DNA of 64,000 bases from an uncultured Alphaproteobacteria bacterium. GTDB lineage: Bacteria; Pseudomonadota; Alphaproteobacteria; RF32; CAG-239. Positions 31,088 through 61,199 of the stretch are shown in pieces. The translations under genes and the position numbers were made by a program. Below the pieces are notes generated by a model. The model saw nothing but the letters and a program-made list of their open reading frames with translations, did no database searches and was not told the DNA's origin. The DNA lies in NCBI GenBank assembly GCA_944392205.1, contig CALXVV010000002.1, forward strand, positions 20,949 to 84,948, in the 5' to 3' direction. How positions within the stretch are numbered: the first letter of the stretch is position 1; each line of letters starts with the position of its first letter.

Positions 31088-32314
31088 TTAAGAAACCTTA
31101 TTGTATTTTGGTTCCAGAAGCTCTTCTTTGCTTAATCTGAAGCCGCTGTTTATCCAGGCTTGCTCCCTTTCTTTCAGAATTCTACCGATTTGAGCTGTTT
31201 CTACGCCCCTATCCACCAAATCTTGGCCTCGCAGAGGAAATGTGGGAACCTCCATATGCTCTATTGCATCATACAGCCCCCAAAAATTAGGCAGAGGTTC
31301 TTTGTTGCGCGCCGTTATTAAAAGTAGCTTCTCTAGGCAAAACTCTTTGCCATATTCATAAGCCAAATGCAGTCTGCTTTTATCATCCAAAAGCTGATTT
31401 AGAGTAACGTCTTCTTCTGCCCAGCTTACAAATTTTTGGCGTTCTTTCTTACTAAACTTCAGCCTTTGTGCCAAATTCTCCGCAAAGGGAACATCTGGCT
31501 GGTACATCGTGAACAAGTAAAGCAAAGCCTTGTTGGCTAAGGTTCTTCCGTTTACCAGTTTTTTTATAAAATCAAGACTGTCTAGGTATTTGGCCTGCGG
31601 CATGATATAACTCATGATGTTGTTTTCTTGCATTATCTCTATGGTTTTTACCGCATTCTTGGTCAGCAAGATTTTCAACATCTCGTCTTTTATCCGCTCC
31701 ATTGGCAGATTTTTTAAGTTTTCGGCGTTTTCCGCGCAGGCCTCAACCGCCTTTTTATCGGGCTCGCCAACACCAAACATTGAATAGAATCGGAAAAAAC
31801 GCAAAATACGTAAATAGTCTTCTTTTACTCTTTGAGTGGCTGAGCCGATAAAGCGAACCACCCCTTTTTCCAAATCATCTATGCCGTTGTAGTAGTCAAA
31901 AACATTACCTTTCTCATCGGCGTAAACGGCGTTTATGGTCAAGTCACGGCGAGAGGCATCTTCCTCCCAATTATCCGTAAACTCAACTTCTGCATGACGA
32001 CCATCTGTTTTTATATCCTTGCGCAGAGAAGTCACCTCTACCAGAGAATCGTCTATCATTACTCCGACGGTTCCGTATTTTATTCCGATGGCAACGGTCT
32101 TTAGTCCTTCTTCTGTGCAGGCCTCTACCAACTCATCAGGCGAAAGGTTGGTGGCAAAATCCAAGTCTGAGCCTTCTATCCCCTTTAGGGCATCGCGCAC
32201 GGCGCCGCCAACAAAGCGGACAACGCCTCCGTGTTTTTCAACAACCTTAAACAACCGGAAGATTTTTTTGTTTTTTACAAGTTTATTTATATCAAGGTAA
32301 TTATCGCGTATCAT
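31088..32314 (-). CDS. cca: CCA tRNA nucleotidyltransferase / poly(A) polymerase family.
   Basis: Pol-beta nucleotidyltransferase head motif (VGGAVRDALKG, DLDFAT), the RRDLTINA motif, and a C-terminal tRNA-binding region. Confidence 0.85.
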   Translation of the reverse strand: MIRDNYLDINKLVKNKKIFRLFKVVEKHGGVVRFVGGAVRDALKGIEGSDLDFATNLSPDELVEACTEEGLKTVAIGIKYGTVGVMIDDSLVEVTSLRKDIKTDGRHAEVEFTDNWEEDASRRDLTINAVYADEKGNVFDYYNGIDDLEKGVVRFIGSATQRVKEDYLRILRFFRFYSMFGVGEPDKKAVEACAENAENLKNLPMERIKDEMLKILLTKNAVKTIEIMQENNIMSYIMPQAKYLDSLDFIKKLVNGRTLANKALLYLFTMYQPDVPFAENLAQRLKFSKKERQKFVSWAEEDVTLNQLLDDKSRLHLAYEYGKEFCLEKLLLITARNKEPLPNFWGLYDAIEHMEVPTFPLRGQDLVDRGVETAQIGRILKEREQAWINSGFRLSKEELLEPKYNKVS

Positions 32315-43797: not shown

Positions 43798-44214
43798 TCA
43801 CAGCATTGTCAGAGCGGCCAAAATTTTTGACGGGGTTGAGGCGTCAAACGCATAAAGGCTGATTTGCGGAATTTTTATTCCACTAAATTCGTAAACCTCT
43901 CCTTCAGGAAAACGATCAACCATTTCTCTTTTTTCCACCAGCCGAACAGCTAAAAACAAATCAGCGTCAACAGAAGGAAAATTTACTATTCCGACCCCTC
44001 TTACTTCTAACAAATCCTTGAGGATTGTTGGCGCAGTTGCCTTTATCTTGCCTTTTAACACCTGTAAATTTACTCTGTCATCAGCGACAAGTTTGGCGCC
44101 CTGCTCCATAATTAAGCGTAAAGCAAGGTCTGACTTTCCTCTGCCGGAAGGCCCATATATCAGAATCCCTTTTTTCTTATATTCCACACAGGAGGCATGT
44201 ACATTAGCCCTCAT
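43798..44214 (-). CDS. hprK: HPr kinase/phosphorylase, short form (C-terminal kinase domain only).
   Basis: P-loop GPSGRGKS and signature LEVRGVGI. About 138 aa, the size of the truncated HprK of alphaproteobacteria. Confidence 0.8.
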   Translation of the reverse strand: MRANVHASCVEYKKKGILIYGPSGRGKSDLALRLIMEQGAKLVADDRVNLQVLKGKIKATAPTILKDLLEVRGVGIVNFPSVDADLFLAVRLVEKREMVDRFPEGEVYEFSGIKIPQISLYAFDASTPSKILAALTML

Positions 44215-44677
44215 TTTTTAGCTCCAGTGCGGATAAACGAGAATGTTTTTCTTTTGAGCGTGTTTCTATGGTAAGTTTGCGCCCCTCTCCTTGCGGGGTT
44301 ATTTCAAGTCTGAAGATATCTCTTGGCAGATAGCCGGCCATTTTTTCCGGCCACTCAATTAAACTCACTCCGGAATACAAGGCCTCCTCAACCCCTATTT
44401 CAAATATCTCTTCCGCCGATTTGAGGCGATATAAATCAAAATGATAAATTTCAAAATCCGGCGCCTCGTAAGTTTGCAACAGCGTAAATGTCGGACTCGG
44501 AACCTCTCCTTGGCCGCATAATTCCTGCACAAAGGCTCTGGCTAACACGCTTTTCCCCATACCCAGTGTGCCGTAAAGCGCGAATACGTCTCCTTTGCGA
44601 GCAATATGTGCAAGCTTTATTCCTATTTTTTTTGTTTCGTTTTCCGTTGCCAGATTTATTTCTATTTTATGGTCCAT
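44204..44677 (-). CDS. tsaE: tRNA threonylcarbamoyladenosine biosynthesis protein TsaE (YjeE ATPase).
   Basis: Walker A-like LYGTLGMGKSVLARAF and the conserved SPTFTLLQTYE / YHFDLYRL blocks of TsaE. Confidence 0.8.
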   Translation of the reverse strand: MDHKIEINLATENETKKIGIKLAHIARKGDVFALYGTLGMGKSVLARAFVQELCGQGEVPSPTFTLLQTYEAPDFEIYHFDLYRLKSAEEIFEIGVEEALYSGVSLIEWPEKMAGYLPRDIFRLEITPQGEGRKLTIETRSKEKHSRLSALELKNEG

Positions 44678-46012: not shown

Positions 46013-49000
46013 ATGGGGTATAGCATGAAGCCGCTTCACGTTCTATCCGGATTTTGTTTGGCCTTGCTTTTGGTTTGTGGTTGCACAGCAAAGGCAATGG
46101 CCGAAACTGTTTGCTCTGGTGGTAATTGTGATGGTTTGGTGATGGACGATGTCTATAATGTACCTTCTCAAGAAACTGTGAATAATGCCACCGTTGTGAA
46201 TAACGGAGAATTATCTCTAGAAGACAACAGTTCCGCTACAAATATAGTTGTTAGTGATGGTGGAAAAATCTCTGCAGGATACAAGGTAACAATTGATGGA
46301 CTTACTCTTGAAAATGGTTCTGTTTTTGACTTTGCTGGCTCTCGCGGCGAAAATTCTCCGGTTATTTCTAATGCCACCCAAAACGGAAATGAGGTCTCTA
46401 TCCAAGATGATCTTGCCAAAGGCTTTGTTGTAAACAACGGTAGCTCTTTAGATGTGAAAAAGGGTGAAAACATCACTGTTGAAGATGGTGGAAACTTAAA
46501 GCTTTATAACGCCAGCAATATTGTTGTTAATGGCGGAACTGTTGACTTAGAAATGGCTGATGGCGTTGTTGTTAATGCTATAGATCAGAATATTATTGAT
46601 TATTCTACCTTTGATACAAGCCTGAAAACTGATGATTTAAGACTACGAGTAAAGGACTATCTGGATCTTGAGCAAAAATATGCGGATGGAGAAATAACTA
46701 AAGAAGAATTCTCAACTGCCATGGAGCAATTTGCTGACATGGAAACTGCTCTTAATGATTCCACAAATGTACTGACTAACTTATTGTCATATGCCTCTTT
46801 TTCAGCTACAAGCGCAAATAATTTAACAATAAATGCAATACCGCTCGATAATACTATTCCTCTGAATATGCTTAGGGATTATTTTCAGGTTTCGGCAAAA
46901 TTTTATGATTCCTTGGTTACTGACAAAGGAGATTCCCCCGTTAATGCTGGAATGTTGGACTATTTTATTGGTCTTTATACCCTGGCCTCAGAAATGAAAG
47001 AACAAAATATTGCCGGACCTAATGTTATTGGAAATATAAAATTAACCAATAGCTCTCTTTCTGATTGGGGAATAATAAGTAACCTTGTAAGGATGGAAAA
47101 TGTTGATCTTAATGATGGCTCTTTTGTTGTTGGATTAACGCAGTTGAACGGTCCTTCTGGCCATGAGGTTTTGCTTGATAATGTCCGCTTTAATGAAGGA
47201 AGCACTTTCTTTCTTGATACTGCCTCTACGGTTATAAACTCTACACAAGAGGGTAAGGAGGTTTCTATTATTGACCATGTCGCTGATGGTTTTTCTGTAA
47301 ATAAAAATAGTATGCTGGTTGTCAGCAATGGTGATAAGGCAAAAAATATTACCGTTAATGATGGCGGTCTGATTATGGCTGCCTTTGACTATTATTATAC
47401 TGACGGAAATGCTGAACTAGATAACATTGTTTTGAACGAGGGTGCCCTTTTTGACCTGCATACCGATGTTACAATGACAAACTCTACTCAAGAAGGTAAA
47501 GAGGTCTCTATTAAAGATAAAGTTGCTGATGGACTGACCATCAATGACGGTAGTGTACTCACCGTAAAAAGTGATGGTACAGCGAAAAATACTTTGGTTG
47601 AAGATGGCGGAACCTTAATTGCTAAAAAGACAGCTCAGATAAACAACTTGGTCGCTCATGGCGGTGCTATTTTGAATATTGATGCCGAAGCTATCTTATC
47701 CGGCGATATAGTCATTGATAAACAAGCTGATACTTCTTTTTCAGACTATGACTTCTCAGCTCTGTTTGCCGCAATGAATAAGGATACAACCTCTTTGACT
47801 CTGACCGGTGGTGTTCATGATTCCTTTGCCGATAAATTAATCAACGAAGATGTTGATGAAAATAAATCTTTGACCCTTGCCCAGGGCGATTATGTTATTG
47901 CTAATACTGAAAAAGACGGAGCTACCAAGGTCACCGGTTGGGATGTTATCAATATCGAAGCAGACACTTCTGAGGATGCAAAAAAGACAACTGTTAAATT
48001 AGAATCTGATATTTCTTTGCAGGGGTCTAATAAAAACTTTGTTGTCGGTGAAAATGCCGTTTTGGACCTCTCCGGACATTCTCCTCTTGATGTGACTATT
48101 GACGGTAATGTTATCAACAAAGGATTGATGGATTTTACTGTTAATGACACCCAAGGAGAAGCTGATGATACCACCACTATTACCGGCAATTATACGGCTC
48201 AAAACGGAGCAACCATTGCACTTAATGTTGATCCGGATACTCTAACTGCCGATAAACTGGTTATTGATGGCGATGTTGTCGGAAACACCAATGTCTTCCT
48301 TAAAACATCTTCTGAAAACTCGGCAGATGGAGATATTCTCTTTGCTCAAGTTCCTAATGACAATCCTGATACGGAATCTTCTTTTGATATATGGCGTGTA
48401 GAGGGAAGTCCTTATAAATGGTCATCAAAGTTTGAGGATAACAACTGGTATACTTATGTTTCCGGCGTTGCCGCTGATGATGACGAAGAGCCCGGAGATA
48501 ACAAACCTGTTTTTGTTCCGGAGATGGTGGCTTATGCCGGCCTTTATGACGCCGGATTTGAACAAACCCGTTCTTTGGCCAGAGCTATTGCCTCAAACAG
48601 CGGTAAAAATGGTTTGCTTGGCTCTGGTTGCCGTGACGGATATTGTCGCAAAATTGAACCCTTGCATACGGCCTGGGCGGTTCCTGTTTATTCAAACGTA
48701 AAAGTTAAGGCTCCTTACGACTATGAAGCCGATATCAGTGGGCTTGATGCCGGATTTGATTTGGTTGCTGATGGAATAAACAAACTTGGAATCTTGGTTT
48801 CTTATCGAGATGGTTCTTATGATTTTAGCGGCAAAAGTGATGATTTTATGTCTTACGGCGGTGCCGATATTGATATTGATAGTTATCTATTGGGTATCTA
48901 TGCCAGACACGATAAAGGACACCTCAAGGCCTTGGCTGCTGCTTTTGCAGGTGTTCAGTCTGCTGACATTCAATCTGATGACGGTGTAAAGGCAGACACT

Positions 49001-49450
49001 GATGCTGTTGAAGCCGGTGTAACTCTTGATGTCGCTTATATCTATGAAGCCGTCAAGGGAGTTACTTTAGAACCAGAACTTCAAGCCTCTTATACAATGC
49101 TTAAATATGACGATATTAAGGATAATGCCGGAAAGAATGTTAAATTTGATACTGCACATCGAGTTGAAATTGACGCTGGTGTAAAGATCAAAAAGTCTTG
49201 GCAACTTGATGAAGCTAAAGCGGCTATTTATGTTAAGCCGAGCCTTGTTCAAACATTTAACAGCGGCGGAGACTTAGTCCTAGCCAATGATGCAACCAAC
49301 ACTCTTGATGATCAGACTTTAGGTAGGGTAGAAATTGGAGCTGATTTCCAGCTTGATACTCGGTGGTCTGTCGGAGCGTCTGCTTCCCATACCTTTAACT
49401 CTGATTATGAGGACACATCCTTTAATCTTGATTTGCAATATAGGTTTTAA
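46013..49450 (+). CDS. Autotransporter (type Va) adhesin-like protein with three internal repeats.
   Basis: Signal peptide (MKPLHVLSGFCLALLLVCGC). The passenger domain is rich in VxDGG/NxGG beta-helix-like repeats. Three copies of an about 50-aa unit are present (ATQNGNEVSIQD..., STQEGKEVSIID..., STQEGKEVSIKD...). A C-terminal beta-barrel of about 280 aa ends in ...LDLQYRF with a terminal aromatic residue. Confidence 0.8.
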   Translation: MGYSMKPLHVLSGFCLALLLVCGCTAKAMAETVCSGGNCDGLVMDDVYNVPSQETVNNATVVNNGELSLEDNSSATNIVVSDGGKISAGYKVTIDGLTLENGSVFDFAGSRGENSPVISNATQNGNEVSIQDDLAKGFVVNNGSSLDVKKGENITVEDGGNLKLYNASNIVVNGGTVDLEMADGVVVNAIDQNIIDYSTFDTSLKTDDLRLRVKDYLDLEQKYADGEITKEEFSTAMEQFADMETALNDSTNVLTNLLSYASFSATSANNLTINAIPLDNTIPLNMLRDYFQVSAKFYDSLVTDKGDSPVNAGMLDYFIGLYTLASEMKEQNIAGPNVIGNIKLTNSSLSDWGIISNLVRMENVDLNDGSFVVGLTQLNGPSGHEVLLDNVRFNEGSTFFLDTASTVINSTQEGKEVSIIDHVADGFSVNKNSMLVVSNGDKAKNITVNDGGLIMAAFDYYYTDGNAELDNIVLNEGALFDLHTDVTMTNSTQEGKEVSIKDKVADGLTINDGSVLTVKSDGTAKNTLVEDGGTLIAKKTAQINNLVAHGGAILNIDAEAILSGDIVIDKQADTSFSDYDFSALFAAMNKDTTSLTLTGGVHDSFADKLINEDVDENKSLTLAQGDYVIANTEKDGATKVTGWDVINIEADTSEDAKKTTVKLESDISLQGSNKNFVVGENAVLDLSGHSPLDVTIDGNVINKGLMDFTVNDTQGEADDTTTITGNYTAQNGATIALNVDPDTLTADKLVIDGDVVGNTNVFLKTSSENSADGDILFAQVPNDNPDTESSFDIWRVEGSPYKWSSKFEDNNWYTYVSGVAADDDEEPGDNKPVFVPEMVAYAGLYDAGFEQTRSLARAIASNSGKNGLLGSGCRDGYCRKIEPLHTAWAVPVYSNVKVKAPYDYEADISGLDAGFDLVADGINKLGILVSYRDGSYDFSGKSDDFMSYGGADIDIDSYLLGIYARHDKGHLKALAAAFAGVQSADIQSDDGVKADTDAVEAGVTLDVAYIYEAVKGVTLEPELQASYTMLKYDDIKDNAGKNVKFDTAHRVEIDAGVKIKKSWQLDEAKAAIYVKPSLVQTFNSGGDLVLANDATNTLDDQTLGRVEIGADFQLDTRWSVGASASHTFNSDYEDTSFNLDLQYRF
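46360..47640 (+). repeat. Internal degenerate repeats within the autotransporter passenger domain (3 copies of about 140-150 bp at roughly 46360, 47229 and 47472).
   Basis: Copies 2 and 3 are recognisably similar at the DNA level by eye (aactctacacaagagggtaaggaggtttctatt... versus aactctactcaagaaggtaaagaggtctctatt...). Copy 1 is more diverged. Confidence 0.6.
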
Positions 49451-49486: not shown

Positions 49487-49723
49487 TTAGGCTATGTCTT
49501 TTTTGCAATAACAGTGGCAATGGCACTCACCGTCTCTTTCTATATCCTGACGACAGGTCTCTGATATGCAGTAACGTGCCGGGTTGTTACCGTCACAAGG
49601 GCAACGCTGCCACTCGGCCTCGCCAAACATAACCTGTTTAGCATTAGCTATTTTTTTTACGTTTTTGGTTGTGGCGTAGCCTGCTTTTTCACAGTTTTCC
49701 AACATCTTATCTAGTATAGTCAT
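49487..49723 (-). CDS. Hypothetical small Cys/His-rich protein (78 aa).
   Basis: The C-terminal half contains CPCDG...CISETC...ECHCHCYC (9 Cys and 2 His in about 40 aa). Has its own terminator. No known motif recognised. Confidence 0.4.
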   Translation of the reverse strand: MTILDKMLENCEKAGYATTKNVKKIANAKQVMFGEAEWQRCPCDGNNPARYCISETCRQDIERDGECHCHCYCKKDIA

Positions 49724-49735
49724 TTTAGTTTGTCC

Positions 49736-50731
49736 TTAGTCTACAATTTTTATTGAAAATTTATCGTTTGATGCTACAGGCTCCTCAGCTTTAAATACAG
49801 TGTTCTGAGAAGTTTCTCCGCGGCGTTTTTGCTCCAATGTCTCTATAATCATATCTAACTCTGCTACCGATGAATACTGCAGAACTACTTTGCCGCCGCC
49901 TTGTTTGTTGGGGCTAATCTTAATTCTTAGGCCCAAGCTTTTTACAAGTTGTCTTTCTATGTCGGCAATATCAGAATTTCTTTCTGTTTTTTCTTTAGCC
50001 GGTTTAGGAGTTTTTTGGCGAGAAACCAAATCTTCTACCTGGCGAACATTTAGATCTTTGGCTATTATCTGCTTGGCTAAAGAACTCGCGTTTTCTAGCC
50101 CAACAAGAGCTCTGGCATGGCCGGCGGAGAGTTTGCCTTCTTTTACAAGCTCCTGAACATCTGCCGGTAAAAACAACAGGCGCAAAGTATTAGCTATATG
50201 GCTGCGAGATTTGCCTACAATCTGAGACAACGCCTCTTGGGTATGGGCAAACTCATTTATGAGCCGCTGGTAACCTTCTGCCTCTTCTATGGCTGATAAA
50301 TTCTCACGCAAGATGTTTTCAACCAGAGCAGCCTCTAAAACCTCTTGATCATTCAAATCTTTGATAACAACCGGAACCTCTTGTAACCCGGCTATTTTTG
50401 CCGCCCGCCAACGGCGTTCTCCGGCGATCAGTTCATATTTATCTCCTTGGTGGCGTACCAAAAGAGGTTGTAAAACGCCCTTTTCTTTGATTGAATCTGC
50501 CAAGGATTGCAGAGCTTCCTTATCAAACTCCGTGCGCGGCTGATATTTTCCGGGAATAATATCATCAACACTTATGCTGTCAGTTGGTTTTATTTCTGTG
50601 TTGATTTCATTTTCCAAATCATCCCCCAGCAGGGCGCCCAGCCCTCTTCCCAAACTTTTTCTTTTGTGAGAGGCCTGGTTGGTGTGAACAGAATCATCGT
50701 TCAACAGCTCATCTAAATCATTATCTAACAT
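49736..50731 (-). CDS. parB: Chromosome partitioning protein ParB.
   Basis: ParB box GERRWRAA, HTH QEALSQIVGKSRSHIANTLRLL, and an N-terminal Lys/Asp-rich region. The start is set to ATG 50731 (MLDNDLDELL), 5 bp after the parA stop. The track start at 50800 overlaps parA. Confidence 0.9.
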   Translation of the reverse strand: MLDNDLDELLNDDSVHTNQASHKRKSLGRGLGALLGDDLENEINTEIKPTDSISVDDIIPGKYQPRTEFDKEALQSLADSIKEKGVLQPLLVRHQGDKYELIAGERRWRAAKIAGLQEVPVVIKDLNDQEVLEAALVENILRENLSAIEEAEGYQRLINEFAHTQEALSQIVGKSRSHIANTLRLLFLPADVQELVKEGKLSAGHARALVGLENASSLAKQIIAKDLNVRQVEDLVSRQKTPKPAKEKTERNSDIADIERQLVKSLGLRIKISPNKQGGGKVVLQYSSVAELDMIIETLEQKRRGETSQNTVFKAEEPVASNDKFSIKIVD

Positions 50732-51504: not shown

Positions 51505-52131
51505 CTACTTTTCTCCTTTAATTTTGCTTAACTTGGTTATAACTAAAATTCTTCCCTCTTGGCTTTGCTCACTGGGCAAAATTTGGCACTTAAATTTCCA
51601 GTGGCGGTGAGCTTCTGCCAATTCCTCGACATATTTTTTACCCTTTGGAAAAATACAAATTGTTTCTTCTTTACAAAAGCGAAGAGCATACCCCAACAAA
51701 TCATTCAATGAAGCCATAGCTCTTGAGGTAATGACATCAGCCTTTTGGGCGGGAATTTTTTCGATTCTGTCATTTATGATATTTACTTTTGTGTTGGTCT
51801 GCGCCTTAACCTCGTTTAAATACAGTGTTTTCTTTCCTGTGCTCTCAACTAAATTAACTTTTAAATCCGGCAATTTTTCATTGGCTATAATTGCCAGTAC
51901 CATTCCCGGAAACCCAGCTCCAGAGCCAAAATCATACAAAACTTTGGCACTTTCCGGTATCAAAGAAAACAACTGAACAGAGTCCAAAAAATGACGGTTC
52001 CAGGCATCTTCCAGCGTGGCTGAACTAACCAAATTAAATTTTTGCTGCCAAGACAAAAGAAGCTCTTGGTAGGTTTTTAACTTGTCAAATGTTTCACGTG
52101 AAACATTGTATTTTTCGCAGAAATTTTTCAT
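51505..52131 (-). CDS. rsmG: 16S rRNA m7G527 methyltransferase RsmG (GidB).
   Basis: SAM-binding region DFGSGAGFPGMVLAI. About 208 aa. Sits in the conserved position before parA. Confidence 0.9.
   Translation of the reverse strand: MKNFCEKYNVSRETFDKLKTYQELLLSWQQKFNLVSSATLEDAWNRHFLDSVQLFSLIPESAKVLYDFGSGAGFPGMVLAIIANEKLPDLKVNLVESTGKKTLYLNEVKAQTNTKVNIINDRIEKIPAQKADVITSRAMASLNDLLGYALRFCKEETICIFPKGKKYVEELAEAHRHWKFKCQILPSEQSQEGRILVITKLSKIKGEK
52090..52105. promoter_or_regulatory. parS centromere site (perfect 16-bp palindrome).
   Basis: tgtttcacgtgaaaca equals the universal parS consensus TGTTTCACGTGAAACA. It lies inside the 5' end of the rsmG coding sequence. Confidence 0.8.
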
Positions 52132-52258
52132 AAGATATTTTTATAATTTTTATGAAAAATTTAAAACACAAAAAATCAAGTTATAAACACCTTATTCTGA
52201 CACTCATAAAATAGACTCTTATTTCAACCACTTAGACACCGTTCTTTGAATCAAATTA

Positions 52259-53065
52259 TCAAAATTTAAATCTCTTTTTACAGCCAAGTTCTGCAAGTTT
52301 GGATTCTGCCTCGGCAAAATATTGTCCTAAACAATCAGTATTGTGTGCATCGTCACTGATGAGGGTCGGAACCCCTGCCCTCACCAGCTCCTTTACAATC
52401 CACCAATCAGGGCTTGGAATTCCACAGCGTCTGATGCCGTTGGTGTTTATTTCAAATGGGGTTTTTGTTTGCTTAAAGGCCTCTATCACTTTCCACTTCC
52501 AATCATCCCACTCCGATTCTGTGCAGAGACCTAAATTTGATGCTAGGTCAAAATGAGCTATAAAAGCAAAATAGCCGCTATTTATGCAATCTATGATGTT
52601 TTGCCAATGGTTTCTAAGATATTCTTTCATGCTTTCGTCTTTTATCGGCTTTCCGCCTAGCCGCCAAATATTGTAAATATTTTGCTCATCTTTGCTAAAG
52701 GCGTTGTGATTAGATCCGATAACATAGTCCGGCTTTACCTCTTTTAACATCTTTTCAAAGGCATCTCTCCATATTTTTGATGGGAAAAAGTCAACCTCAA
52801 ACCCTGCATAAACTTTTATCTTGTGGCGACTGGCAGCTTCCCTTGTCTGCTCAATATCCTTTTTGGCATAGTCCAGAGCCTTTGTGAGGTTACTAAAAAA
52901 CATAGAATGTTCTTCAGAAATATTGGGATGGTAAACAAAATGGTTGCTAACACCAATCTCTGAAAAACCTATTTCCTCTGCTCTTGACAACATCTCATCA
53001 CAAGTGTTGTGCCCATCTGCTATTCCTTGGCTGGAATTATGTGAGTGATAGGTAAAATCTTGCAT
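52259..53065 (-). CDS. PHP-domain metal-dependent phosphoesterase (HisK-like histidinol-phosphatase family).
   Basis: PHP motifs YHSHNSSQGIADGH (HxH...DG), GFEVD, IGSNHN, IAHFDL and EINTNG. Its ATG overlaps the stop of the upstream HD gene by 1 nt. Confidence 0.7.
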   Translation of the reverse strand: MQDFTYHSHNSSQGIADGHNTCDEMLSRAEEIGFSEIGVSNHFVYHPNISEEHSMFFSNLTKALDYAKKDIEQTREAASRHKIKVYAGFEVDFFPSKIWRDAFEKMLKEVKPDYVIGSNHNAFSKDEQNIYNIWRLGGKPIKDESMKEYLRNHWQNIIDCINSGYFAFIAHFDLASNLGLCTESEWDDWKWKVIEAFKQTKTPFEINTNGIRRCGIPSPDWWIVKELVRAGVPTLISDDAHNTDCLGQYFAEAESKLAELGCKKRFKF

Positions 53066-53676
53066 TACTTTATCCCCAACAACTCATAAATATCTTGTCC
53101 GCAGAGCTTATCAAATCGCTTTTTTAACTTCTCTGCAGCTTTTTTCATGCCTTCCGACTCTTTTGGATCTCTATTATATTTTTTGATTATATAGTCAATC
53201 CGTTCTTCCAGTCTTACAAACTTTCTGTGACAGCAAAGCATGTCACTCAGCTGGATTAAATAATCGTAGTCATCCAACTCCATTTTTGATATAAGTTCTT
53301 TTGCTCGCTCTATTTCCTTTTTATCATAGACAAAGTGCTCCGGGGCAAATGTTCCTTTCCAAAAGCTGTGAGTTAAGCATACCCTAGCAATTTCATCATA
53401 ACCTAGCTTCATCATCTCATCATAGCCAGCTGTGCCGTGAAAGGTGCCGGGAACGGTTCTTTCTATATATTCACCATAGTCATGAAAAAGCCCTAAAATT
53501 TTGGCCTTATGACTATCTAAACCACAATGTGAGGCTATCTTTTCTGCACAGCGAGAAACATCTATATAGTGGTGAACAGATTCATCTGCTGCACACCCTC
53601 TTGCAATATTTGGCTCTTTTGTTTTTTCACAAACAAAATCAAAAAGATTTTTGACTGCTTTTTTATCCGGTAACAT
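53065..53676 (-). CDS. HD-domain phosphohydrolase, paralogue 2.
   Basis: HD motif GLFHDYGE and conserved blocks FHGTAGYDEMMKLGYDEIARVCLTHSF and DDYDYLIQLSDM, which are shared with the adjacent paralogue. Confidence 0.7.
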   Translation of the reverse strand: MLPDKKAVKNLFDFVCEKTKEPNIARGCAADESVHHYIDVSRCAEKIASHCGLDSHKAKILGLFHDYGEYIERTVPGTFHGTAGYDEMMKLGYDEIARVCLTHSFWKGTFAPEHFVYDKKEIERAKELISKMELDDYDYLIQLSDMLCCHRKFVRLEERIDYIIKKYNRDPKESEGMKKAAEKLKKRFDKLCGQDIYELLGIK

Positions 53677-53681
53677 CTATG

Positions 53682-53700
53682 GCCCCCTTTTTTAGGGGGC
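53682..53700 (-). promoter_or_regulatory. Intercistronic hairpin that sequesters the Shine-Dalgarno of HD paralogue 2.
   Basis: On the mRNA: gcccccuaaaaaagggggc, then cauag and AUG. A 6-bp GC stem. The purine-rich agggggc that would serve as the SD is one arm of the stem. No U-run follows, so it is not a terminator. Confidence 0.4.
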
Positions 53701-53711
53701 TATTCTAGCAT

Positions 53712-54326
53712 CTATATATTTAATATTTTGTAAACATCCATTCCGCAAAGAGCATCAAAATATGTTTTGTTTCTTTTTGTATATTTCTCTTGTTCTTTCG
53801 TTTGTTCTTTGTCCAAACCATAACGTTTTCTTATGCCGGCAAGGCGCTCTTCAAAACCGACTTTGGACATTCCCTCAAAAAACATATCGCATAGCTGTAT
53901 TAAGCGATCATAATCATCATATTCTTCTATTTCATCCAACTTTTGATGAGCCCAGTGCAACCATTCCGGCCGATATGAAGCATAATACTTGTCGTTAAAT
54001 TTTTTATTTGGAAAGCTATGAGTCAGACAGATACGCGCACATTCATCATAGCCCAACTTTAGCAATTCTTCATAGCCTGTTTGGGCGTGAAATTTGCCAG
54101 TCAATTTTTCATCGTATTTCTTGCCATAGTCATGTAATAAACCGACAATATATGCCTTTTCAGAGTTTAAATACGGTGTTTTTTCCGCTATTTTTTGAGC
54201 TGCCTCTGCCACACCGGTAGTGTGAAAAACATATTCCTTATAAATGGGCCAATCGTAAGGTTGTTTTAATCTAAAATCTATTCCCTCTTGCCATAGCTGT
54301 TTGGCTTTTTGCAGAGAAGGTATCAT
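53712..54326 (-). CDS. HD-domain phosphohydrolase, paralogue 1.
   Basis: Metal-ligand series H35 (VFHTTGV), H65-D66 (LLHDYGK), H80 (FHAQTGYEE), H103 (CLTHSF) and D147 (LIQLCDM). The ATG overlaps the mnmG stop (ATGA). Confidence 0.7.
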
Positions 54327-56173
54327 TTTTTTACATATCCCAAAATGGCTGTGATTGCTGCAGGTGTAACACCCGGAATTCTTGAGGCCTCTCCTATAGT
54401 TGACGGACGAACCTTAGAAAGCTTTGTCACCATTTCGCGCGACAAACCTCCTATCTTGCTATAATCTATATCTTCTTTTAAGCGCAGATTTTCATCTTTT
54501 TTGAAAACTTCTATATCTGCCATTTGACGTTTGATATAGCCAGAATACCGTGCCTCTATCTCCACCTGCTCGTAAATATCATCTGCAACATTCTCAAATT
54601 GTGGCCAGATGCTATTGATGGTTTCACGTGAAACATCGTGATAAGACATAACATTAAAAGCACTTCTTCTGACACCGTCTTGTTTGATGTTTATTCCTCT
54701 TTTTTCTAATTCAATAGGAAGAATATTTTCAGCCTCTGCTGCTTTTCTAAAGTCGTTTATTGCCTTCTTTTTGGCTTTAAATACACTGTATCTATATTCT
54801 CCGACACAGCCTATTTTATAGCCTTTCTCTGTCAAACGCTGGTCTGCGTTATCGGCTCTCAAAAACAATCTATATTCAGAACGAGATGTGAACATTCTAT
54901 ATGGTTCATCAACTCCCTTGGTGATCAAGTCATCAACCATCACACCCATATAGCCCTCTGCTCTGTCTACAGTGAAAATATCATCTCTTCCTAAAGCTGA
55001 TAAAGCGGCATTCACTCCAGCCAAAAGACCTTGTGCCGCGGCCTCCTCATAGCCCGTTGTTCCATTAATCTGACCAGCCAAAAATAGACCCGGAACCTTT
55101 TTTACAGCCAATCTGCTATCTAATTCTTGCGGATCTACATAGTCATATTCTATGGCATAGGCCGGGCGCAAAATCTCTACATTTTCCAACCCCGCCATAG
55201 TATGAATAAACTGATCTTGAACATCCGCCGGCAGTGATGTCGATATTCCGTTTGGGTAAACAACATCCGTATTTAACCCTTCTGGCTCCAAAAATATTTG
55301 GTGACTGGTGCGGTCTGCAAATTTGACCAGCTTATCTTCTATGCTAGGACAATATCTTGGCCCGATGCCAGTTATAAGCCCAGAAAACAGTGCACATTTC
55401 GAAAAATTATCTCTTATTATCTTGTGCGTTCTCTCATTTGTGTGCGTGATGTAGCATTTTATCTGCGGATTTTCCAACTTCTCAGTCAAAAAAGAAAAAG
55501 GTTGCGGATTTTTATCTCCTTCTTGGGATTCCAAAATATCCCAGTTAATTGTTTTACCATTCAACCTGGCGGGGGTGCCTGTCTTCAGGCGCCCTACTTT
55601 TAGCCCCATATCCTTTAAATACGGTGTTATACCTGTACAGCTGATGTCATTTACCCTGCCCCCAACATATGTTTGGTGGCCAATAAACATTATTCCGTTC
55701 AAAAAAGTACCTGAGGTCAATACTACCGCTTTGGCCCTCAGTTCTCTTCCGTCTGCAAGTTTTACACCGCAAACTTTTCCTTTCTCAACAATAAAACCTT
55801 CTGCTGAGGCTTCTACTAACTCTAAATTTTTTTGCTCCCTTAGCGCCTCTAGCATATATTTTTTATAAAGCTCTCTGTCTGCTTGAGCTCTTGGACCCCT
55901 TACTGCCGGACCTTTTGAGGCATTGAGCATTCTAAACTGTATGCCGGCTTTATCTATAACGCGCCCCATCAATCCATCTAGCGCATCAATCTCTCTTACC
56001 AAATGTCCTTTACCCAGACCCCCTATGGCCGGGTTGCAAGACATCTCGCCAATAGTTGAAATCTTGTGAGTTACCAAGGCTGTATCAGCTCCTATCCGGG
56101 CTGCTGCTGCGCAGGCCTCACATCCGGCATGGCCGCCGCCGACAACAATTACGTCATATTCTGTTTTAGTCAT
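54323..56173 (-). CDS. mnmG: tRNA uridine 5-carboxymethylaminomethyl modification enzyme MnmG (GidA).
   Basis: FAD-binding N-terminus [15 protein letters not shown] and the full-length conserved GidA body (about 616 aa), ending ...[10 protein letters not shown]. Confidence 0.95.
54619..54634. promoter_or_regulatory. parS-like site (15 of 16 match, with a perfect 14-bp core).
   Basis: ggtttcacgtgaaaca. The GTTTCACGTGAAAC core is intact. It lies inside the mnmG coding sequence. Confidence 0.65.
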
Positions 56174-56276: not shown

Positions 56277-56651
56277 CTATTTCTTACCTATCAGATATTC
56301 AAGCATTTTACGAAAATATGATAGTTTTTCAACAATCAGCCTCGGCTCTATGCGTGCACAATGGGCAAGAATGTTAAAAATAACAATATGCTCAAAGCTC
56401 CATCTGCCCTCGTGACGCTCTTTATCTAACAAATAAGCCTGGCGCTCAAAATTACCGGTTATGTCATATATCTTCATGATATAACTTCTGTCGTTATGGT
56501 CTGAGGCCAAAAAATCAAGAACCTCTTTTAGGTCAGATACATCTATCTTTTTATTGTCATAAAAGCGGCTTAATTGCTCTTGAAGTTCTGCCACATTATA
56601 TTGTGGTTGACCAGCAAGAAATTGTTCCAATAATTCATTTTTCATAGGCAT
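56277..56651 (-). CDS. Hypothetical protein (124 aa) inserted between mnmE and mnmG.
   Basis: Clean ORF with no recognisable motif. It occupies a junction that is normally contiguous in alphaproteobacteria. Confidence 0.4.
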   Translation of the reverse strand: MPMKNELLEQFLAGQPQYNVAELQEQLSRFYDNKKIDVSDLKEVLDFLASDHNDRSYIMKIYDITGNFERQAYLLDKERHEGRWSFEHIVIFNILAHCARIEPRLIVEKLSYFRKMLEYLIGKK

Positions 56652-56702: not shown

Positions 56703-58046
56703 TTATTTTCCAATACAAAAAGAGCCGAATATCTTATCTAATATTTCTTCTACTTCTATTCTGCCGGTGATTTTGCCAAGCTCTCTGGCTGCCAGACGAA
56801 TATCTTCCGCTGTTAGTTCTATTTCTTTGTCAAAACTAAACTGCTCCAAATTTTCTACTGTTTTTTGCAAGGCCTCTCTATAGCGTCGGCGCGTTATCAG
56901 GGCTCCGGAACTTGAGCTGAAAACAGATTTTATACGATCTTCTATGGCGTTAAGAAGCGTTTTGACACTTTCATAATCTTTGGCAGAGATAATCAAACAT
57001 CCTTCTTTTTTAATCTTTGAACATTGTTCAGATGTTAATTTATCACTTTTATTTGCTACAAATAACATTTTGTCTTTAAATGATTTTTTAATATTATCAA
57101 ACAGTTGAACAGAGTCTTTACACCCATCAAACAAACATATTACCAAATCTGCTTCTGCTATTTTGCTTTGGGTTATCTCTATGCCTTTTTTCTCTATTAT
57201 TTCCTCCGTTTCTCTCAAACCGGCGGTATCTGTGAAAATAACAGGATATCCACCTAAATCCAGATAAATATCTATGGCATCTCTGGTGGTGCCGGCAATA
57301 TCTGATACGATAACAGCCTCTCTTTTGACTATCGTATTAATTAAGCTTGATTTTCCTGCGTTTGGCGGGCCTACAATAACTACCCTGAAACCTTCTCTAA
57401 GCCTCTCCCCTGCTGAATTGTCAGACAAGTGTGCTTTGATGTCTTGTTTTAGTTTAAATACACTGTTTTCCATATCAGAAATTATATCTTGAGGAATTTC
57501 TTCTTCAGGAAAATCTATATAAGCTTCTAAATGGGCAAGGATTTTTAATAAACCTTCTCTCCAGCCCTCATATAAATTCTTTAAGCCTCCTTCCATCTGT
57601 CTTATGGCGTATTTCTGCTGCTCGGAGGTTTCGGCATCTATCAAATCTGCAAGTCCTTCAGCCTCTGTTAAATCCATTTTGCCGTTATAGAAGGCTCTCT
57701 TGGAAAATTCTCCGGGCTCTGCTAACCTAAAACCATCTATACAAGATAAACTATCCATGATTGACGATATAACGGCTCTGGAACCGTGAGTTTGAAATTC
57801 GACGATATCTTCACCGCTAAAAGAATTTGGTGCCTTAAAATACAATAAAAGGGCTTTATCTAACTTCCTCTTATCTTTTGCATGATGCAAAGATGCAAAA
57901 TAAGCATATCTTGGTTTTATATTTTCAACATCCAAATTGGTCATTGCCTTAACAGCTTCTAAAGCCTTATCTCCGGATATACGTATCACCGCCACACCGG
58001 ATTTACCAAAAACCGTCGATAAAGCATATATTGTTTGATTATCCAT
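56703..58046 (-). CDS. mnmE: tRNA modification GTPase MnmE (TrmE).
   Basis: G domain motifs G1 GPPNAGKSSL, G3 DTAG and G4 NKSD. C-terminal ...FCIGK (the MnmE C-terminal CxGK motif). N-terminal THF-binding domain. Confidence 0.9.
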   Translation of the reverse strand: MDNQTIYALSTVFGKSGVAVIRISGDKALEAVKAMTNLDVENIKPRYAYFASLHHAKDKRKLDKALLLYFKAPNSFSGEDIVEFQTHGSRAVISSIMDSLSCIDGFRLAEPGEFSKRAFYNGKMDLTEAEGLADLIDAETSEQQKYAIRQMEGGLKNLYEGWREGLLKILAHLEAYIDFPEEEIPQDIISDMENSVFKLKQDIKAHLSDNSAGERLREGFRVVIVGPPNAGKSSLINTIVKREAVIVSDIAGTTRDAIDIYLDLGGYPVIFTDTAGLRETEEIIEKKGIEITQSKIAEADLVICLFDGCKDSVQLFDNIKKSFKDKMLFVANKSDKLTSEQCSKIKKEGCLIISAKDYESVKTLLNAIEDRIKSVFSSSSGALITRRRYREALQKTVENLEQFSFDKEIELTAEDIRLAARELGKITGRIEVEEILDKIFGSFCIGK

Positions 58047-60724: not shown

Positions 60725-60960
60725 GGAAACCTTTTTGGAAATGATTAAATAGGAGGGATATTTGTGATTTTTTTATAAGAGTTTTTTTACCTTCTGTCAA
60801 TTAATATTATAAGGCACTTTTATGAACAGCCCCGCAGGGCCAATAATATATTTTTAAAATGTTTTTGTTGTTTGTGAATCCCTGTGAGAGTTGTTGATTA
60901 TTTTTTTATCTTTGAGTTATTCAGATTTTAACTCTTTGTTAATAAAATTGAGGAAATTTG

Positions 60961-60975
60961 TTAATAGTTTATTAA
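60961..60975. promoter_or_regulatory. CtrA-box (TTAA-N7-TTAA).
   Basis: ttaatagtttattaa. Confidence 0.5.
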
Positions 60976-61041
60976 TATTTTAGTCTTTTCAATTGACTAA
61001 TGTTGTGAAGCTTATTTTTTGTTGGTTGTTAGTAAGTTTTG

Positions 61042-61050
61042 TTATCCACA
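61042..61050. promoter_or_regulatory. DnaA box (perfect 9-mer).
   Basis: ttatccaca. Confidence 0.6.
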
Positions 61051-61199
61051 TCTTGTGAATCAAATTTAAGCCTGTGTGTAAGTTGTGAGATTAAATTTTA
61101 CTTTACGGTGATAAAAAGTTATAAAAGGTAGGGTAGGGGTGAGTTATGCACAGAAAATGAGACTTCTGTTTATAACTTGTTTAACCTTCTGATAAAAGG

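Follow-up and report, generated by a model that had tools for sequence, protein, structure and literature searches.

A copy-number-variable HD-PHP phosphoesterase cassette at the mnmG-rsmG junction of uncultured gut Alphaproteobacteria

Introduction

The closest structures to the HD proteins considered here are nucleotide phosphodiesterases or diphosphatases throughout, namely the HD-GYP proteins PmGH (4MCW) and DvhD (9RC0), YqeK, and PgpH (4S1B). YqeK (COG1713, TIGR00488) is the symmetric Ap4A hydrolase of Gram-positive bacteria, with structures 2O08, 8JJA (SP1746) and 8WMY, and HD-GYP proteins and PgpH are cyclic-dinucleotide phosphodiesterases. HD-GYP domains are recognised by an HH pair, which provides a seventh ligand, together with the GYP triad; an extended six-residue motif, H..HD..H..H..D, is diagnostic of a dinuclear HD site; and HD phosphatases possess a strictly conserved arginine about three residues ahead of the first metal-binding histidine (PMC8177086). 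Two further types are relevant: the mixed-valent diiron oxygenases PhnZ, TmpB and MIOX, and HD-Pnk, an end-healing enzyme of Runella slithyformis whose HD domain is a 2',3'-phosphoesterase (PMC6097658). Among PHP proteins, histidinol phosphatases of the HisJ/HisK type, which are phosphomonoesterases, are closest to the PHP protein of this locus and provide its best PDB fold match.

The canonical origin-proximal operon reads mnmE-mnmG-rsmG-parA-parB. The locus described here keeps this gene order, and mnmG and rsmG each contain a parS site, but additional genes occupy 2.2 kb between mnmG and rsmG, and 0.7-6.5 kb in related loci. A first-pass annotation of this DNA could name no described system of HD-HD-PHP architecture, and we likewise found none in PADLOC, PHROGs, NCBIfam or a literature search.

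Results and Discussion

The analysed window is a stretch of 64,000 nucleotides from an uncultured alphaproteobacterium (contig CALXVV010000002.1). On its minus strand the order is mnmG, HD1, HD2, PHP and rsmG, followed by parA and parB, with mnmE upstream of mnmG; tsaE lies at 44204-44677. The three same-strand genes between mnmG and rsmG noticed in the first-pass annotation are thus present, in that order and with HD proteins of about the length proposed:

54323..56173, minus strand: mnmG, 616 aa (TIGR00136, 830 bits), upstream of the cassette
53712..54326, minus strand: HD1, 204 aa, HDIG-type HD protein, core copy of the cassette
53682..53700, minus strand: hairpin GCCCCCU-AAAAA-AGGGGGC with a 7-bp stem, within the 35-nt HD1-HD2 gap (53677-53711)
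53065..53676, minus strand: HD2, 203 aa, HD1 paralogue with all six ligands
52259..53065, minus strand: PHP, 268 aa, HisJ/HisK fold, nine conserved metal ligands
52132-52258: PHP-rsmG spacer, 127 nt, AT-rich
51505..52131, minus strand: rsmG (TIGR00138, 143 bits), downstream of the cassette

Translation of the cassette is coupled, by stop/start overlaps at two junctions and by a hairpin masking the ribosome-binding site at the third; the overlaps and the GC hairpin in the 35-nt gap had all been read correctly from the sequence before. The mnmG/HD1 junction reads AAAAAATGATACC, so that the HD1 ATG and the mnmG TGA overlap by 4 nt (ATGA), and the HD2/PHP junction reads GGATAAAGTAATGCAAG, where the PHP start overlaps the HD2 stop (TAATG). 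Both arrangements recur, the 4-nt overlap of mnmG with the first HD gene (ATGA, GTGA or TTGA) in 30 of 49 related loci, and a PHP start overlapping the preceding gene or lying at most 10 nt from it in 29 of 39 cases. The hairpin has a predicted minimum free energy of -14.9 kcal/mol (z -1.8), and its 3' arm forms the HD2 Shine-Dalgarno sequence (GGGGG, 53683-53687), 6 nt ahead of the ATG at 53676. A hairpin of different sequence, GGCUCCC/GGGAGCC, occupies the same place in the related locus L007 (z -4.4), and others, again differing in sequence, do so in L008, L011 and L013 (z -2.9); L016 has none, and in other loci the gaps are only 4-7 nt long.

The promoter and terminator scan gave counts no higher than in shuffled sequence; it revealed no minus-strand terminator within the cassette, and no terminator-like site was predicted on that strand from PHP to rsmG. 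Rfam gave no match over 49.0-61.5 kb, and the GC content of the cassette is not anomalous. The genes are tightly coupled, and HD1, HD2 and PHP are most likely co-transcribed with mnmG, as the single transcript proposed in the first-pass annotation would have it.

Both HD proteins score above the gathering threshold of PF01966 (22 bits), HD1 with 39.3 bits (9e-10) and HD2 with 28.7 bits (1.7e-6), and against the HDIG model TIGR00277 (cut-off 27.6 bits) they reach 29.3 and 23.3 bits, respectively. They are paralogues, as supposed, with 38% identity (E 2e-40). The ligand series previously read in HD1 (H35, H65-D66, H80, H103, D147) is invariant in 21 diverse homologues and in 119 of 119 HD copies from 83 loci; since it is the dinuclear-diagnostic motif, the sequences point to a dinuclear site. 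We infer that HD1 and HD2 belong to an uncharacterised HDIG-type HD subfamily with a predicted complete dinuclear metal site. In addition, the family has an invariant Cys100 and a DDYD motif. The lysine of HDxGK is replaced by glutamate in HD2, and position 69 among the alphaproteobacterial copies is K in 55, E in 17 and R in 14. Where HD phosphatases have their arginine, at position 32, at least 90% of the family has tyrosine, and HD2 has serine (within the stretch ESVHH); since Tyr32 replaces the arginine, a simple phosphatase or diphosphatase model may be wrong.

The likeness to binuclear enzymes of the YqeK or PhnZ/MIOX type suggested in the first-pass annotation held in part. YqeK-type enzymes do rank with the closest relatives of known function, and the top profile match in the PDB is the YqeK-type Ap4A hydrolase SP1746 (E 1.9e-6), but HD1 and HD2 reach only 16.5 and 23.5 bits against TIGR00488, whose equivalog cut-off is 70.15. 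The cassette proteins differ from YqeK also in the tyrosine three residues ahead of the first histidine, in ligand spacing (14 versus 32 from the HD to the third histidine, 44 versus 18 from the last histidine to the aspartate), and in genomic setting, with paralogues in tandem and a PHP gene coupled to them instead of a nadD-yqeK operon. Comparison with PhnZ, TmpB and MIOX by the six-ligand motif, the YxxE substrate loop of PhnZ and TmpB, and a partner 2-oxoglutarate hydroxylase gene did not place the HD proteins in that group. About 145 of 204 residues superpose on HD-GYP proteins and PgpH at 3.3-3.6 A; however, H103 is flanked as T102-H103-S104 (L-T-H103-S-F), with no HH pair, G84-Y85-E86 is no GYP triad, and receiver, PAS and 7TM modules are absent. 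A likeness of domain order to HD-Pnk is seen in the HD-family relative P0311 (HD, then a P-loop kinase); the HD proteins of the window have neither a kinase domain nor a ligase neighbour.

The PHP protein matches PF02811 with 54.9 bits (1.8e-14; gathering threshold 26.4), and 53-54 of 54 copies retain each of its metal ligands (H7, H9, D17, H42, E90, H120, H171, D239, H241). We infer a HisJ/HisK-fold enzyme with a putatively complete trinuclear site. It falls below the HisJ-family models (67.9 against 90.2 bits for TIGR01856 and 92.2 against 202 bits for PRK07328), and differs from the solved enzymes of T. thermophilus (2YXO), Listeria (3DCP) and L. lactis (4GC3), to which it is 16-22% identical, in forming tandem paralogues, up to four, in invariably having HD genes, and in no case his genes, for neighbours (about 50 loci), and in belonging to a subfamily of 231 proteins that was found in this alphaproteobacterial clade alone. 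No signal peptide or membrane segment was found in HD1, HD2 or PHP, thus all three should act in the cytoplasm.

We surveyed the mnmG-rsmG junction in 44 species-level gut alphaproteobacterial MAGs, which were found via the HD protein, so that the share of the clade lacking the cassette cannot be read from this sample. Per genome we counted 1-3 HD domains and 0-2 PHP genes in the gap; one metagenome contig has four PHP genes. The trio thus represents a phosphoesterase cassette specific to one lineage, an uncultured gut-associated clade of Alphaproteobacteria, in which its place at the mnmG-rsmG junction is fixed and its copy number varies; what had been taken for an insertion is not a one-off event but a conserved, compositionally variable feature of the whole clade. 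The HD2-type copy occurs in a subset of genomes only. HD genes stand without PHP in 7 of the 44, indicating that there is no obligatory link between the HD and PHP steps. In three genomes (L015, L038, L047) this locus encodes two HD domains in a single open reading frame, and because related genomes make the two copies as one fused polypeptide, HD1 and HD2 probably act as a dimer or heterodimer. NUDIX genes adjoin the HD genes in the alphaproteobacterial loci L004, L005, L015 and L038.

At 50% identity the HD subfamily falls into about 1,350 representative clusters, mostly from gut Clostridia and gut Alphaproteobacteria. All-against-all clustering of about 1,200 ORFs revealed no conserved neighbours of the Clostridial homologues, which are never near mnmE, mnmG or rsmG. 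Among 20 fused representatives of the Clostridial branch, the partner was GNAT in nine, NUDIX in four, and a family-II inorganic pyrophosphatase, an NT5C deoxyribonucleotidase, an AAA_33 P-loop kinase, GDSL, peptidase S51 or SUKH in one each; two had no recognised partner. Fusions to NUDIX, pyrophosphatase, 5'-nucleotidase, P-loop kinase and GNAT point to nucleotide phosphate hydrolysis, but GNAT, the commonest partner, is not a nucleotide hydrolase and counts against such a model.

The probable task of the cassette enzymes is the clearing or recycling of nucleotides, not RNA modification. Of the RNA or nucleotide role proposed in the first-pass annotation, nucleotide processing is thus backed by the domain fusions, while the RNA-modification neighbours lend it no support: guilt by association is weak here, as parA and parB share the operon, the neighbourhood was simply inherited, and the link of the cassette to RNA modification is one of inherited gene order only. 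We tentatively favour, as a good possibility, a cytoplasmic two-step nucleotide phosphoesterase route, co-expressed with mnmG, with no RNA-modification role implied. The substrate of the HD enzymes would derive from a nucleotide, with a nucleoside polyphosphate, a dinucleoside polyphosphate and a cyclic or linear dinucleotide as candidates; they would cut a phosphoanhydride or phosphodiester bond in it, and PHP would then take off the remaining phosphomonoester, the two together constituting a nucleotide house-cleaning or salvage route. The site after mnmG would provide origin-proximal, constitutive expression and is no sign that the cassette takes part in modifying tRNA or rRNA.

Other explanations appear less probable. 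It is unlikely that the cassette serves turnover of signalling nucleotides, where the HD proteins would specifically hydrolyse a single alarmone or second messenger, such as Ap4A/Np4N (as YqeK), c-di-AMP (PgpH), c-di-GMP/cGAMP (HD-GYP) or (p)ppGpp/(p)ppApp, and PHP finishing the breakdown: the YqeK score, the lack of an HH pair or GYP triad and the absence of a 7TM module all speak against it, and the presence of one to three HD domains in tandem and as many as four PHP genes rather suggests that the range of substrates has diversified. Processing of RNA ends or caps in connection with the adjoining RNA-modification genes, along the lines of the first-pass annotation, with the HD proteins opening 2',3'-cyclic phosphates or stripping Np4 caps and PHP taking off the 3'- or 2'-phosphate in the manner of end-healing enzymes, seems rather unlikely, as the fusion to a P-loop kinase was seen in only 1 of 20, genes for a ligase, Hen1 or RtcB are missing from the vicinity, the Clostridial homologues keep away from mnmE, mnmG and rsmG, and the neighbourhood is no functional evidence for an RNA role because the operon also holds parA and parB. 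Were PHP a histidinol-phosphate phosphatase of histidine biosynthesis, the HD genes would be unrelated neighbours or would replace another phosphoesterase step; despite the fold, we regard this as quite unlikely given the sub-threshold family scores, the low identity to the solved enzymes, the variation from no PHP gene in seven genomes to two to four in tandem in several others, and a subfamily found in this clade alone, beside HD and not his genes. On histidinol-binding residues, PMC10804674 deals solely with enzymes of the HAD type.

A fast-evolving detoxification or immunity module, directed against toxic nucleotides or nucleoside-analogue toxins in the gut, would account for the different HD and PHP copy numbers among close relatives, for the occurrence of the HD family in both Alphaproteobacteria and Clostridia, two unrelated lineages of the gut between which it may have been transferred in that habitat, and for the fusions to GNAT, NUDIX, GDSL, peptidase S51 and SUKH, an immunity-protein domain. 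Yet the cassette is vertically inherited within a core, origin-proximal housekeeping operon, its base composition is unremarkable, and it holds no toxin, transporter or regulator gene. PADLOC produced for the HD proteins nothing beyond a weak generic Cas3-HD similarity in the H..HD region (best E 4e-5), and PHROGs no meaningful match for the cassette proteins; we therefore rejected a defence or phage origin and hold the module to be improbable. Equally doubtful is a closer bond with the host operon, in which the HD paralogues would form an obligate heterodimeric dinuclear enzyme, a new HD subclass marked by the tyrosine at the phosphatase-arginine position, Cys100 and the DDYD motif, and with an expandable PHP set would catalyse an undescribed nucleotide or RNA-end reaction tied functionally to MnmEG/RsmG, for example removal of a nucleotide by-product or of a damaged or capped RNA end met by these enzymes. 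Finally, a shared six-ligand motif, similar ligand spacing in the N-terminal half, the missing phosphatase arginine and a conserved tyrosine (Y32) near the first histidine would suit mixed-valent diiron oxygenases of the PhnZ/TmpB/MIOX type cleaving a C-P or C-C bond, but we consider this highly improbable.

If the preferred biochemical reading, the two-step nucleotide phosphoesterase route, is true, the HD proteins would represent a new dinuclear HD hydrolase subfamily and PHP a clade-restricted HisJ-like branch, neither of which has been characterised in any member. With HD-HD fusions occurring in nature and HD and PHP so tightly coupled, the two-step model is concrete and testable, and identification of the substrate would close a gap in the nucleotide metabolism of abundant uncultured gut bacteria. 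Our results also advise caution, as the mnmE-mnmG-rsmG-parAB neighbourhood, which in this lineage behaves as a permissive site of gene accumulation, is a poor guide to function.

Some of the gaps also hold a NUDIX gene and a MurA-like gene of 473 aa. We rejected a pathway link between the latter and the cassette, as in remoter alphaproteobacterial MAGs this protein (44-50% identity) follows obg and neither HD nor PHP genes are close by; the gene is probably a divergent murA native to the lineage.

A separate matter is the presence of short conserved sites in the operon. Two parS sites bracket the cassette, and an oriented motif lies within it:

52090..52105: perfect parS (TGTTTCACGTGAAACA), inside the rsmG 5' end
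54620..54635: parS with one mismatch, inside the mnmG 3' part
54165..54177, minus strand: copy of the oriented motif (ACCGTATTTAAAC), inside HD1

The former parS site coincides with the strongest third-codon-position conservation peak of rsmG (44 species), and the latter with the top such peak of mnmG (48 species). The oriented motif is a strand-specific 15-mer confined to the mnmG-rsmG operon, and is present also in ten HD genes of related loci. It was rejected as a parS site, since canonical ones are present separately, as a DnaA box and, by inspection, as a CtrA site (TTAA-N7-TTAA). A metagenome scan with the 16-mer AACACTGTATTTAAAC returned mainly single chance matches, about 7 of 120 coming from the operon of this clade; an unrelated 41-nt tandem repeat was noticed in L166 during the same scan.

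Organization of the mnmG-rsmG region

The gene order mnmG-HD-HD-PHP-rsmG on a single strand, proposed in the first-pass annotation, was borne out by gene calls and by Pfam and NCBIfam models, which matched the three proteins between mnmG and rsmG (HD1, 204 aa; HD2, 203 aa; PHP, 268 aa) to the HD, HD and PHP families, respectively. The region contains the following genes:

56703-58046, minus strand: mnmE
56277-56651, minus strand: unannotated 124-aa ORF between mnmE and mnmG
54323-56173, minus strand: mnmG (GidA by Pfam and NCBIfam)
53712-54326, minus strand: HD1 (HD by Pfam and NCBIfam)
53065-53676, minus strand: HD2 (HD by Pfam and NCBIfam)
52259-53065, minus strand: PHP (PHP by Pfam and NCBIfam)
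51505-52131, minus strand: rsmG (GidB by Pfam and NCBIfam)
after rsmG, minus strand: parA, then parB
49487-49723, minus strand: Cys-rich 78-aa ORF directly after parB
46013-49450, plus strand: autotransporter, 1,145 aa, PF03797 beta-domain and AIDA stalk

Both start/stop overlaps described previously, ATGA between mnmG and HD1 and TAATG between HD2 and PHP, are present in the sequence. The sole intercistronic gap, 35 nt between HD1 and HD2 (paralogues with 38% identity), indeed folds into a GC hairpin, of 7 bp (GCCCCCU/AGGGGGC), whose 5' arm begins 11 nt past the HD1 stop and whose 3' arm is the purine run constituting the HD2 ribosome-binding site. Hairpins of other sequence occupy the same place in three related loci, L007 (GGCUCCC/GGGAGCC), L011 (UUCUCC/GGAGAA) and L013 (UAUUUUCC/GGAAAAUA), and the gap is only 4-7 nt long in other relatives. 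The hairpin may be a device tying HD2 translation to ribosomes completing HD1.

The 124-aa ORF matches no Pfam or NCBIfam family and is common to the nearest relatives only; in other species unrelated ORFs, among them an opposite-strand methyltransferase, are found between mnmE and mnmG, thus this junction is variable too. The Cys-rich ORF, without a match in Pfam, holds the same position in 22 related loci. The autotransporter, flanked by the small gene after parB and by an SNase-like gene, looks like a recent insertion, because the closest relatives, L007 and L008, have nothing at that position.

Distribution of the cassette

One genome per species was scanned with an alignment of HD homologues, which yielded 80 loci, about 47 of them from uncultured Alphaproteobacteria of gut and rumen samples (labelled 'uncultured Alphaproteobacteria', 'uncultured Azospirillum sp.' or 'proteobacterium') and the remainder from Clostridia; as the survey was HD-seeded, its counts exclude clade genomes devoid of the cassette. 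Every alphaproteobacterial locus that includes mnmG has its HD gene between mnmG and rsmG, the exception being a second NUDIX-HD pair located elsewhere in one genome. The cassette is thus a clade-level feature rather than an insertion peculiar to this genome, and, on the evidence of the HD-seeded search, the trio is not general to Alphaproteobacteria.

Its composition varies. Across the 44 genomes whose contig spans the complete interval, it consists of one to three HD domains and zero to two PHP genes, two HD and one PHP, as in the window, being the commonest arrangement (14 genomes). Where a single HD is present, it is of the HD1 type, and one human-gut contig combines an HD and a MurA-like gene with four PHP genes. 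The 4-nt overlap of mnmG with the first HD recurs in 30 of 49 loci, and PHP overlaps the preceding gene or starts within 10 nt of it in 29 of 39 cases.

The HD proteins

HD1 and HD2 are matched by generic models only (HD, HDIG and, weakly, HDOD), and the YqeK model scores 16-24 bits vs a cut-off of 70. Their nearest structures are those of HD-GYP enzymes, an HDOD protein, YqeK, PgpH and the uncharacterised Thermotogales HD protein 2pq7. The six-ligand series noted previously (H35, H65-D66, H80, H103 and D147) is invariant in 119 copies and predicts a dinuclear site, of which this extended motif is diagnostic (PMC8177086). According to the same review, HD phosphatases have an Arg before the first His, where a near-invariant Tyr is found in this family, and HD-GYP proteins bear an HH pair and a GYP triad, both of which it lacks. 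The YxxE loop (PMC8177086) is absent as well, which leaves the proposed PhnZ/MIOX-type oxygenase activity unsupported. The family adds invariant residues of its own: C100, Y139, D140 and R161; D138 is nearly invariant. The ligands, the missing signatures and these residues define, at the sequence level, a separate subfamily within the dinuclear branch. An exhaustive HMM search recovered 1,350 representative clusters, of which 132 fell below 1e-30.

In three alphaproteobacterial species (related loci L015, L038 and L047), two HD paralogues between mnmG and rsmG are fused into one ORF (411-441 aa), with HD motifs kept in both halves:

L015, 6299-7624: HD-HD single ORF
L038, 6986-8221: HD-HD single ORF
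L047, 6923-8242: HD-HD single ORF

Their occurrence as a single polypeptide argues that the tandem copies cooperate.

Elsewhere in the window, the domains on record for a CCA-adding/poly(A) polymerase family protein (31088-32314, minus strand, 408 aa) are the PolyA_pol head and RNA-binding domains only, with no HD domain listed.

Possible function of the cassette

Fusion partners of the HD domain were scanned in 20 fused representatives of the Clostridial branch. GNAT was found in nine and NUDIX in four, while family-II inorganic pyrophosphatase, NT5C deoxyribonucleotidase, AAA_33 P-loop kinase, GDSL, peptidase S51 and SUKH occurred once each, and two had no recognised partner domain. NUDIX genes also adjoin HD genes in four alphaproteobacterial loci. 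NUDIX enzymes split nucleoside diphosphate linkages, the pyrophosphatase clears pyrophosphate, NT5C takes the phosphate off deoxynucleotides, and the AAA_33 kinase is of the polynucleotide-kinase type. These partners fit hydrolysis of nucleotide polyphosphates by the HD proteins; GNAT and SUKH do not match such activity and leave room for detoxification, a role that we keep open.

Of the interpretation proposed initially, the dinuclear site, the coupling and the nucleotide chemistry are plausible, and the link to RNA modification, deduced from the neighbourhood, is not supported. The order mnmE-mnmG-rsmG-parA-parB is inherited along with all its surroundings, the unrelated parAB included, and the Clostridial homologues, which have no conserved neighbours, are never near mnmE, mnmG or rsmG. 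Tolerance of the mnmG-rsmG gap for extra genes is suggested by a divergent MurA-like protein of about 473 aa (loci L004, 3110-4531; L090, 1893-3320; L095; L096). Some gut species encode it in this gap, whereas in alphaproteobacterial MAGs more remote from them its gene follows obg. It scores 277 bits vs the MurA equivalog cut-off of 393, is annotated by NCBI as hypothetical and probably represents this lineage's own MurA.

That PHP is a histidinol phosphatase is a live but minority explanation: the protein scores below the curated HisJ cut-offs, its subfamily was found in this clade only, as many as four copies stand in tandem, and seven genomes are without it. Most likely, the cassette would perform a two-step cytoplasmic hydrolysis, in which an HD (hetero)dimer hydrolyses a nucleotide-derived substrate and PHP acts next on the product.

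parS sites, an oriented motif and a candidate origin

Two canonical parS sites, both encoding VSRET, bracket the HD-HD-PHP cassette, which would place it inside a presumed ParB-bound centromere region:

52090-52105: perfect parS, inside the rsmG coding sequence
54620-54635: parS with a single mismatch, inside the mnmG coding sequence

Another motif, AACAC(T/C)GTATTTAAA, surfaced in junction sequences. Its 13-mer core, ACTGTATTTAAAC, has nine sites in the window (up to two mismatches) vs 2.2 expected; six of these nine fall between parB and mnmE, all on the gene strand:

49789-49801, minus strand
51814-51826, minus strand
54165-54177, minus strand
54775-54787, minus strand
55613-55625, minus strand
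57452-57464, minus strand

In the mnmE to parB interval of 43 related loci, a 12-mer core (up to one mismatch) occurs in 220 gene-strand copies and none on the opposite strand; 237 kb of flanks contain no gene-strand and two opposite-strand copies. Within genes the copies fall in two reading frames, and between genes they directly follow stop codons; some form arrays with a spacing of 21-32 nt. In an unbiased scan of third-codon-position conservation in mnmG, rsmG, mnmE and parB, the top peaks in the first three genes were the two parS sites and this motif; parB gave no such peak despite its 22 copies. Strand bias, placing and synonymous-site conservation mark the motif, as judged from sequence, as a cis element selected at the DNA or RNA level. 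Its identity with parS was rejected, the canonical parS sites standing separately; it is not in Rfam, and elsewhere in metagenomes it gave a chance match only.

The 475-bp AT-rich intergenic region between rho and coaE (60725-61199) is a candidate replication origin. It contains several TGTGA repeats and two DnaA boxes:

61042-61050: perfect DnaA box
61144-61152: DnaA box with one mismatch

The cumulative GC-skew minimum falls at about 58-60 kb of the window, and the genes change direction at about 58.1 kb.
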